In this document: one piece after another, positions 18,061-18,516 of the stretch | How positions within the stretch are numbered: the stretch's first letter is position 1 | Layout of the letters: each line of letters opens with the position of its first letter | From: a virus | UHGV virus genome: UHGV-0143632 | DNA: 24,923 bases | Strand: one strand, 5' to 3' | Notes under the pieces: generated by a model | What the model saw: only the letters and a program-made list of their open reading frames with translations | What the model was told of the DNA's origin: nothing | Databases searched by the model: none | Made by a program: the position numbers and the translations under genes

Positions 18061-18284
18061 AAATTCACTCTCCTTACGGGGTTTGTAGTTGAGGAGTTCT
18101 CCACGGGTGAGGTGGAGATCGTGCGCCGGACACGGGTGAGTTCCTGCACTCTCAGTTTACTGAACAGACATTACCCTGAAAGCCAGGGTACTACACGAAA
18201 GCGCGAGGCGAAGACTCTTTCCCATAGAAGGATTGTCGTTAGATTTCTTCGACCGTGCGCTTCCGGTTGTGAATAACAACATTG

Positions 18285-18340
18285 CTGTGTGTAACCCTTG
18301 GCGGATATCGGTTTGCCGATTGCTGATGTCCGCCCTTTTT
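18285..18340 (+). ncRNA. DicF-like small RNA candidate with intrinsic terminator
   Basis: Inside a roughly 455-bp ORF-free stretch of the pL operon: hairpin GGCGGATAT...ATGTCCGCC followed by CTTTTT; the hairpin and the following flank (aaagtgaattttgtgatg.ggtgaatgcggct..gcgcacgcggaacagttaaacc) resemble my recollection of the dicF 3' end and downstream sequence in the Qin prophage. 5' end not defined. Confidence 0.4.
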
Positions 18341-18516
18341 AAAGTGAATTTTGTGATGCGGTGAATGCGGCTATGCGCACGCGGAACAGTTAAACCGACA
18401 GGATGTCACGGAAAGTCATCGTCCCCTGACCCGGCGTTAGTTGTTAACTGGTTAACGTCACCTGGAGGCACCAGGCACCGCATCAACAAAGTTCATTTGT
18501 GAAAATGGAGATAATT

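Follow-up and report, generated by a model that had tools for sequence, protein, structure and literature searches.

The untranslated leader of kil in a lambdoid prophage probably carries a KilS-family small RNA

Why does the pL operon of a lambdoid prophage leave some 455 bp without a gene directly ahead of a cell-division inhibitor gene, and what kind of RNA, if any, does this interval encode? We addressed this question in virus genome UHGV-0143632, whose full 24,923 nucleotides are called the window below. The original prediction, made from the letters alone, had described the interval as free of open reading frames and as holding a DicF-like RNA candidate and palindromes. The gap spans 18061..18516, from the start codon of a minus-strand ORF to the ATG of kil, and the plus-strand gene order is that of a pL-type operon: repressor, small ORFs, gap, kil, recE-like, gam, bet, exo and int. 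Its borders are the following:

17851..18060, minus strand: 69-aa ORF, divergent from the pL operon and left border of the gap; hypothetical protein WP_000189938.1 in the identical RefSeq record

18507..18510 and 18517..18738, plus strand: Shine-Dalgarno sequence GGAG, and kil from its ATG at 18517 to the end of its stop codon at 18738, with a 73-aa product

KilR is an inhibitor of FtsZ, and the 73-aa Kil of the window is 90% identical to KilR of K-12. Several E. coli chromosomes are 100% identical to the window over 981 bp around the gap; the flanking genes including kil are annotated there, and no feature is annotated within the gap. Three mechanical ORFs overlap it (17974..18276, 100 aa with a TTG start; 18233..18364; 18365..18502), none of which is annotated in the 100%-identical RefSeq record. 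The last of these, of 45 aa, is not conserved, as its length ranges from 11 to 46 aa with changes of frame among 58 unique homologues, and the small ORFs neighbouring the gap have no Pfam match except a weak N-peptide one further upstream. We therefore rejected a coding function, and the claim of an ORF-free stretch holds in the sense that 18061..18516 contains no conserved ORF. The gap is the untranslated leader of kil, a cell-division inhibitor gene in the pL operon of a lambdoid prophage.

The 69-aa ORF itself has no Pfam match. It is preceded by a strong Shine-Dalgarno sequence, AAGGAGAG, on the minus strand at 18075..18068, and its 5' UTR therefore takes up roughly the first 20 nt of the gap. 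Its relative place and orientation are those of sieB in Rac; it points against the pL operon, and its promoter must sit inside the gap. Upstream of the gap, the plus-strand ORF 16691..17095 has a weak, sub-threshold N-peptide match (PF25694, 18 bits against 27.9), which would fit N-type read-through of a terminator at 18300..18340.

Two K-12 spacers can be aligned with the gap over its full length, ydfC-dicF-dicB of Qin and sieB-kilS-kilR of Rac. The two relatives are resembled to different degrees along its length. The first part is Qin-like:

18081..18249, plus strand: upstream leader, homologue of the Qin ydfC-dicF spacer, with local hairpins at 18098..18118 and 18172..18190

These 169 nt are 76.6% identical to Qin versus 52% to Rac, while the downstream part, 176 nt from CCGCCCTTTTT onward, is about 79% identical to both K-12 prophages and includes a 29-mer, CCGCCCTTTTTAAAGTGAATTTTGTGATG, that is identical in the window and K-12 Qin. 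The resemblance that the original prediction noted to the 3' end of dicF in Qin and to the flank downstream of it is thus confirmed by alignment. Together with the 90% identity of Kil and KilR, these values make the window a mosaic, in which the upstream leader is of the Qin type and the sRNA body and the gene are of the Rac type. Sequence homologous to parts of the gap occurs in 4641 of 5426 complete E. coli genomes, and the window-type body covers at least 80% of a 116-nt query in 84 genomes. Window-type sequence also occurs in phages: PhiR5_2 matches the 456-nt gap at 97.6% and phiSTEC1589-Stx1c at 93.5%. Contigs labelled as a 'Candidatus Nanosynbacter' MAG and a 'Proteobacteria bacterium' MAG (L132, L134) have the same KilS region as the E. 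coli Rac type, without a difference, and the Aeromonas phage AP1 record (H128) matches 18330..18497 at 84.7%; all three give the impression of E. coli prophage DNA that was mis-binned or came in as contamination.

Within the leader, the candidate RNA and its parts were placed as follows:

18250..18340, plus strand: candidate KilS-family small RNA; its length would be about 91 nt with the 5' end placed as in K-12 KilS

18270..18299, plus strand: proposed seed region, from the 5' stem motif to the terminator, UGAAUAACAACAUUGCUGUGUGUAACCCUU

18300..18340, plus strand: intrinsic terminator, a 13-bp hairpin (18300..18334) with a 9-nt loop, then C and UUUUU (18336..18340)

From 5' to 3', the candidate consists of a conserved 5' motif, GUGCGCUUCCGGUUGU, an A-R-N-like stretch, the seed CAUUGCUGUGUGUA and the terminator, and its overall fold has a z score of -3.6. 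The seed region is weakly and partly paired in the minimum-free-energy structure of the isolated RNA and open in the centroid, and AAU-AAC-AAC at 18272..18280 is a repeat of the A-R-N type. The terminator hairpin, GGCGGAUAUCGGU-UUGCCGAUU-GCUGAUGUCCGCC, forms 13 pairs with a dG of -22 kcal/mol (z = -4.9), and none of 200 shuffles folds as well; the predicted hairpin with a T-tract is accordingly real as a fold. Our promoter and terminator consensus scan missed it because its loop exceeds 8 nt. The same scan found no plus-strand promoter in the gap, and a putative extended -10 upstream of K-12 KilS, TGTTAAATT, read by eye and unscored, is changed to CGTTAGATT in the window, so an own promoter for the window sRNA is doubtful.

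The closest named relative of this RNA is KilS (b4833) of K-12 Rac, which the original prediction, reading the candidate as a DicF variant, had not considered. KilS lies in the kilR 5' UTR and was predicted from Hfq RIL-seq (Bar et al. 2021, PMC8175672); northern blots showed an RNA of about 98 nt in stationary phase, present in the wild type and absent in a delta-hfq strain, and the authors suggested an own promoter and reported three RIL-seq targets, among which yncL was highlighted (PMC8175672). In a blastn search with the 91 nt of 18255..18345, the best non-self matches were Rac loci at 79-81%. The candidate 18250..18340 is identical to K-12 KilS in 77 of 102 aligned columns, and NC_000913.3 carries the ncRNA annotation kilS (b4833) exactly at the aligned place. 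Like KilS, it lies on the same strand in the 5' UTR of a kilR homologue, ends in an intrinsic terminator and precedes the leader domain. Shared blocks comprise GUGCGCYUCCGGUUGU, AAUAACRACAUUGCUGUGUGUA and the ends of the terminator stem. Across 16 unique short-type bodies, 14 of them with the KilS seed, the 5' motif is conserved and the middles of the hairpins vary, and the 14 KilS-seed bodies keep RAAUAACRACAYUGCUGUGUGUAGU. Judged by sequence, the window RNA is a variant of KilS and a member of its family, and we infer its expression and Hfq dependence by homology to K-12 KilS. The interval 18250..18345, put forward earlier for an overexpression test, coincides with the homologue of a real sRNA.

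How, then, is the likeness to DicF to be read? One reading is that the RNA at 18286..18340 is a true DicF variant that represses ftsZ translation by antisense pairing and causes filamentation. Slot and flanks are indeed those of dicF: the RNA sits in a dicB/pL-type operon between conserved flanks, ends in a GGCGG..CCGCCCUUUUU terminator and adjoins a cell-division inhibitor gene. The Rfam search that had been proposed as a check was negative, as the DicF model (RF00039, gathering threshold 48 bits) has no match at this threshold in the window. An additional E-value-mode search on 1 kb returned a weak but full-length match at 18286..18335 with 29.2 bits (E = 4e-4). On the same model, K-12 DicF scores 76.7 bits, K-12 KilS 39.1 and the other non-canonical slot variants tested 28.6-43.5, a spread which indicates that the model picks up a family resemblance borne by the terminator and not membership; the stem ends GGCGG/CCGCC and the tail are common to DicF and KilS, and the middle of the hairpin is specific to the window variant. 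DicF pairs through its 5' region with xylR and through its 3' region with ftsZ and pykA (PMC5069750). Both its 5' pairing region, UUUCUGGUGAC, and its anti-ftsZ loop, UUUUACUCCGUGACUG, are absent from the window sequence. A duplex of the loop with ftsZ can be drawn at -20.6 kcal/mol, but the window-ftsZ duplex ranks 12 of 44 translation-initiation regions and is thus unremarkable. With the score below threshold and both pairing regions missing, DicF proper was rejected, and we hold the reading as a true DicF variant to be very improbable. By these features the window RNA is not DicF, and ftsZ is probably not among its targets. Of the predicted DicF-like candidate, the dicF slot, the shared 3' half of the terminator and the flank stand, whereas the RNA itself is a KilS variant without the DicF pairing regions; the accompanying remark that its body differs from K-12 DicF and may carry another seed was correct, the seed being of the KilS type.

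This seed has a counterpart in the host. The 13 nt at 18281..18293, AUUGCUGUGUGUA, are identical to nt 60-72 of RprA, and chance alone would give 0.01 occurrences of this 13-mer in the window. In K-12 KilS the identity extends to 16 nt (nt 60-75 of RprA; AUUGCUGUGUGUAGUC, L003 3971..3956, minus strand), and in a Pseudocitrobacter faecalis locus (L137) to 21 nt, CGAATTGCTGTGTGTAGTCTT. In all three, the RprA-identical stretch stands directly 5' of the terminator hairpin. Processed RprA, a 47-nt RNA that starts at nt 59, is active on its own (PMC9262595), so that the predicted KilS-type seed of the window is the seed carried by processed host RprA. Membership of the RprA family was rejected, as the RprA model (RF00034) gives the window 22.4 bits against a gathering threshold of 70 (E 8.7) and the seed alone is shared. 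A precedent is the prophage sRNA StxS, whose pairing site in the rpoS leader is also that of the host sRNAs RprA, DsrA and ArcZ (PMC7547250). The KilS paper mentions neither DicF nor RprA (PMC8175672), and we found no paper linking KilS with either in the literature searched, so the RprA identity and the cassette view developed below may be new.

Target prediction was less informative. The window seed forms a duplex with yncL at -33..-15 of -16.1 kcal/mol (-18.9 for K-12 KilS), and 13-22% of random 110-nt windows are as good; across 44 translation-initiation regions and 4990 background windows, seed-only duplexes with yncL and ftsZ were no better than background. Duplex energy is a weak proxy here, since the verified DicF-ftsZ pair ranks just 9 of 44. 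Whole-RNA RNAduplex runs against ftsZ and yncL were discarded as meaningless long duplexes. Autoregulation by pairing of the seed with the kil translation-initiation region was likewise rejected, being no better than shuffles (172/300).

We next considered what else occupies this slot. An exact IMG/VR search with the 29-mer returned at least 120 loci, which with four annotated loci and the window gave 125 sequences, a sample biased by the exact anchor and by the close relatedness of E. coli prophages. Four seed types (DicF, KilS, CAUGUUGAUUACC and CUCGUGGUGUACCC) and at least seven hairpin types occur among the 125 sequences listed, in which the window groups with the KilS-type sequences and its own allele accounts for three of the 125 among the matches listed. 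Seeds and hairpins also occur in mixed combinations: a DicF seed may be joined to a KilS-like hairpin, for instance, and a KilS seed to a third type of hairpin. The gene downstream is dicB, kil or another; DicF mostly goes with DicB and KilS mostly with Kil, and exceptions occur. DicF, KilS and at least two unnamed seed types therefore appear to be alternative inserts of one recombining cassette. A more far-reaching proposal, that the kil and dicB leaders as a whole are one recombining sRNA cassette with two RNase III stems, independently shuffled seed and hairpin modules and a KilS-type seed that is a phage copy of the processed-RprA seed, is one that we put forward tentatively and would sooner doubt than accept.

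The KilS seed is found beyond this slot. A pattern scan of one genome per species detected the seed with a GGCGG..CCGCCCUUUUU terminator in Escherichia and Shigella, and in another context, with an STnc100-like hairpin on its 5' side, in Raoultella, Superficieibacter, Pseudocitrobacter and E. coli. A second KilS-seed family (L130, L135, L137, L138/L139), from Superficieibacter, Raoultella, Pseudocitrobacter and E. coli, has a GGCGGUACCAG..CUGGUACCGCCCUUUUU terminator and on its 5' side the hairpin NNGG-AGGCA-CCNN as an STnc100-like 5' domain, which scores 29.2 bits in L138; the kil leader does not follow in this family.

Two long helices frame the candidate RNA:

18189..18215, plus strand: 5' strand of the upstream helix, paired with 18246..18271; duplex dG -28.2 kcal/mol

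18246..18271, plus strand: 3' strand of the upstream helix, overlapping the first 20 or so nucleotides of the sRNA

18342..18363 with 18476..18498, plus strand: downstream closing helix of 20-22 bp, dG -31.5, which closes a multibranch domain

In an RNAalifold analysis of 58 unique sequences, ACACGAAAGCGCACGG pairs with CCGUGCGCUUCCGGUUGU in the upstream helix, each position being paired in 53-58 of the 58, with compensatory changes between A-U and G-C in 14 sequences and between G-C and U-A in 16. For the downstream domain, evaluated on the same alignment that gave the structure, 99.2% of cells in the 58 unique sequences pair, versus 30-45% with slid partners, and the 5' strand of its helix lies inside the search anchor, so its invariance is partly by construction. 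Double changes occur in 17 cells versus 2.1 in shuffles, with none of 500 shuffles reaching the observed value, although the shuffle controls are inflated because the sequences are closely related. Of the DicF species of Qin, that of 190 nt owes its 5' end and that of 72 nt its 3' end to RNase III, and that of 53 nt is made by RNase E (PMC5069750; bioRxiv 10.1101/2023.04.14.536235). Length arithmetic, which is approximate, places the two RNase III ends inside the helices: the 190-nt form would start within the 3' strand of the upstream one, and the 72-nt form would finish within the 5' strand of the downstream one. The correspondence suggests that RNase III would process the cassette at these two helices in the window and in Qin alike.

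The domain closed by the downstream helix contains the palindromes:

18342..18498, plus strand: structured leader domain, closed by the 22-bp helix, with a weak STnc100-like match

18433..18459, plus strand: 11-bp hairpin GGCGUUAGUUG-UUAAC-UGGUUAACGUC, containing GTTAACTGGTTAAC; two of its pairs show compensatory changes

18461..18475, plus strand: 5-bp hairpin CCUGG-AGGCA-CCAGG, near-invariant among 58 unique homologues

The two palindromes named by the original prediction, GTTAACTGGTTAAC and CCTGG-AGGCA-CCAGG, are both present, and the former, at 18443..18456, is as near-invariant as the latter in the same 58 homologues; they are not separate features, however, but hairpins of this kil-leader domain. 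Could the domain 18342..18498 alone be the functional unit, either an sRNA of the STnc100 type or an RNA that, like put, modifies RNA polymerase? Its structure is conserved, and its inner part recurs in the phages P7 and D6 and in Klebsiella phages. In two IMG/VR loci (L052 2972..3433 and L044 4732..5215, both minus strand), a DicF-like terminator and an STnc100-like domain stand directly upstream of isrK-C4; since isrK and C4 replace kil or dicB there, the leader domain is reused ahead of different downstream units. The STnc100 model (RF02076) also matches 18337..18531, but with 31 bits against a gathering threshold of 47 and against 130-139 bits for the true copies at 5095..5773. The domain lacks its own terminator, and the model's 3' end falls on the kil start region, where there is neither hairpin nor U tract. 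As for a put-like role, such an element would need a place upstream of the terminator it suppresses. Phage HK022 carries putL and putR; blastn-short against the whole HK022 genome gave only chance matches of 10-15 nt, and a HK022 put-like antiterminator was rejected on this lack of similarity. We find it scarcely credible that the domain acts alone as the functional unit.

Elsewhere in the window, three tandem STnc100-type units lie on the minus strand at 5095..5773, between a Q antiterminator ORF (6314..6940, minus strand) and an esterase ORF (2890..4893, minus strand). Two are strong (5095..5304, 129.9 bits; 5580..5773, 138.7 bits) and one is weak (5369..5544, 30 bits), and in position they correspond to short PR'-tR' transcripts like StxS and PasD. 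A further minus-strand segment, 9414..9612, holds together a C4 antisense RNA (75.1 bits), isrK (75.8 bits) and the c4-a1b1 target element (46.9 bits), and is a P1/Gifsy-type immI antirepressor control region inside a lambdoid prophage.

Taking the leader as a whole, we consider it likely that it is an sRNA cassette, composed of a KilS-family base-pairing sRNA of the Hfq type, a terminator and two processing helices, acting in trans through the seed, with DicF as an alternative insert. Transcripts without antitermination would end at 18340, which would make the 3' end of the sRNA and keep kil silent. Read-through transcripts would carry the sRNA between the helices 18189-18215/18246-18271 and 18342-18363/18476-18498; RNase III may then cut both, releasing the sRNA and leaving a kil mRNA with a short 5' end near the ribosome-binding site. 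The released sRNA would act in trans on host mRNAs through its seed. A stop at 18340 that keeps kil off is consistent with reports that kilR in Rac needs read-through, its expression being reported only when NusG/Rho termination is relieved (PMC5793797).

The same reports would also suit a leader that acts in cis only, in which a terminator or attenuator and a long leader serving as Rho entry keep the toxic kil off and the short RNA is a by-product. A strong intrinsic terminator directly upstream of a toxic gene and the lack of significant target complementarity point in this direction. However, in KilS-type sequences the stretch 5' of the hairpin is better conserved than the hairpin, which a terminator alone does not explain, and the seed recurs with a similar terminator in the unrelated contexts of Raoultella, Superficieibacter and Pseudocitrobacter. 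K-12 KilS is moreover Hfq-dependent and forms RIL-seq chimeras (PMC8175672). We regard a purely cis-acting leader as unlikely; cis and trans roles are not exclusive.

Taken alone, the window has little weight: the sRNA of which it holds a variant copy already has a name, though it has hardly been studied. The broader point is that DicF and KilS, so far treated as unrelated sRNAs of two prophages, appear as inserts of one cassette. The identity of the KilS seed with that of processed RprA, together with the few RIL-seq partners reported, yields concrete and testable target hypotheses for KilS, and the alleles of the slot, among which the seed has been swapped naturally, could serve to study how host regulation is retargeted by prophages. 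If the cassette view is true, shuffling would let prophages swap which host mRNAs are hit, and prophages with the KilS-type seed, that of the window included, would tap into or compete with the Rcs/RprA regulon of the host.

Compared with known systems, the window RNA is closest to KilS. Both lie directly upstream of a KilR-type gene and share the 5' motif, the seed core, the terminator stem ends, the U tail and the downstream leader (~79% identical). The window hairpin is shorter, with UAUCGGUUUGCCGAUUGCUGAU in its middle where KilS has CAUCAGUUUUUUUCUUGAAGUUCGGCUGAU, and its seed ends in AACCCUU in place of AGUCCU; its upstream flank is Qin-like and not Rac-like, and the putative extended -10 is not kept. 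With DicF of Qin it has in common an orthologous slot with the same flanks and terminator ahead of a small cell-division inhibitor gene, and probably the processing logic of a terminator and two RNase III helices. In contrast to DicF, it carries neither the 5' seed nor the anti-ftsZ loop and scores 29.2 instead of 76.7 bits, and the Qin-type body is some 100-115 nt longer, with 190-212 nt from the GUGCGC motif to the terminator versus 94-107 nt. Processed RprA shares 13 nt of its 5' single-stranded part with the window and 16 nt with K-12 KilS, in both cases directly 5' of the terminator hairpin; it shows no homology elsewhere and has another terminator, whereas the window RNA is prophage-borne and not known as Rcs-regulated. 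STnc100, PasD and StxS are short sRNAs between Q/PR' and the late genes of lambdoid prophages. The leader domain of the window resembles STnc100 in its GAUGCGGUG/CACCGCAUC-type closing helix, its GGUGAAU box and its NNNGG-AGGCA-CCNNN hairpin, which takes the form CCGGG-AGGCA-CCCGG in STnc100. Unlike STnc100, this domain matches below threshold, lacks a terminator of its own and stands 3' of the sRNA terminator, not 5' of a seed and terminator.
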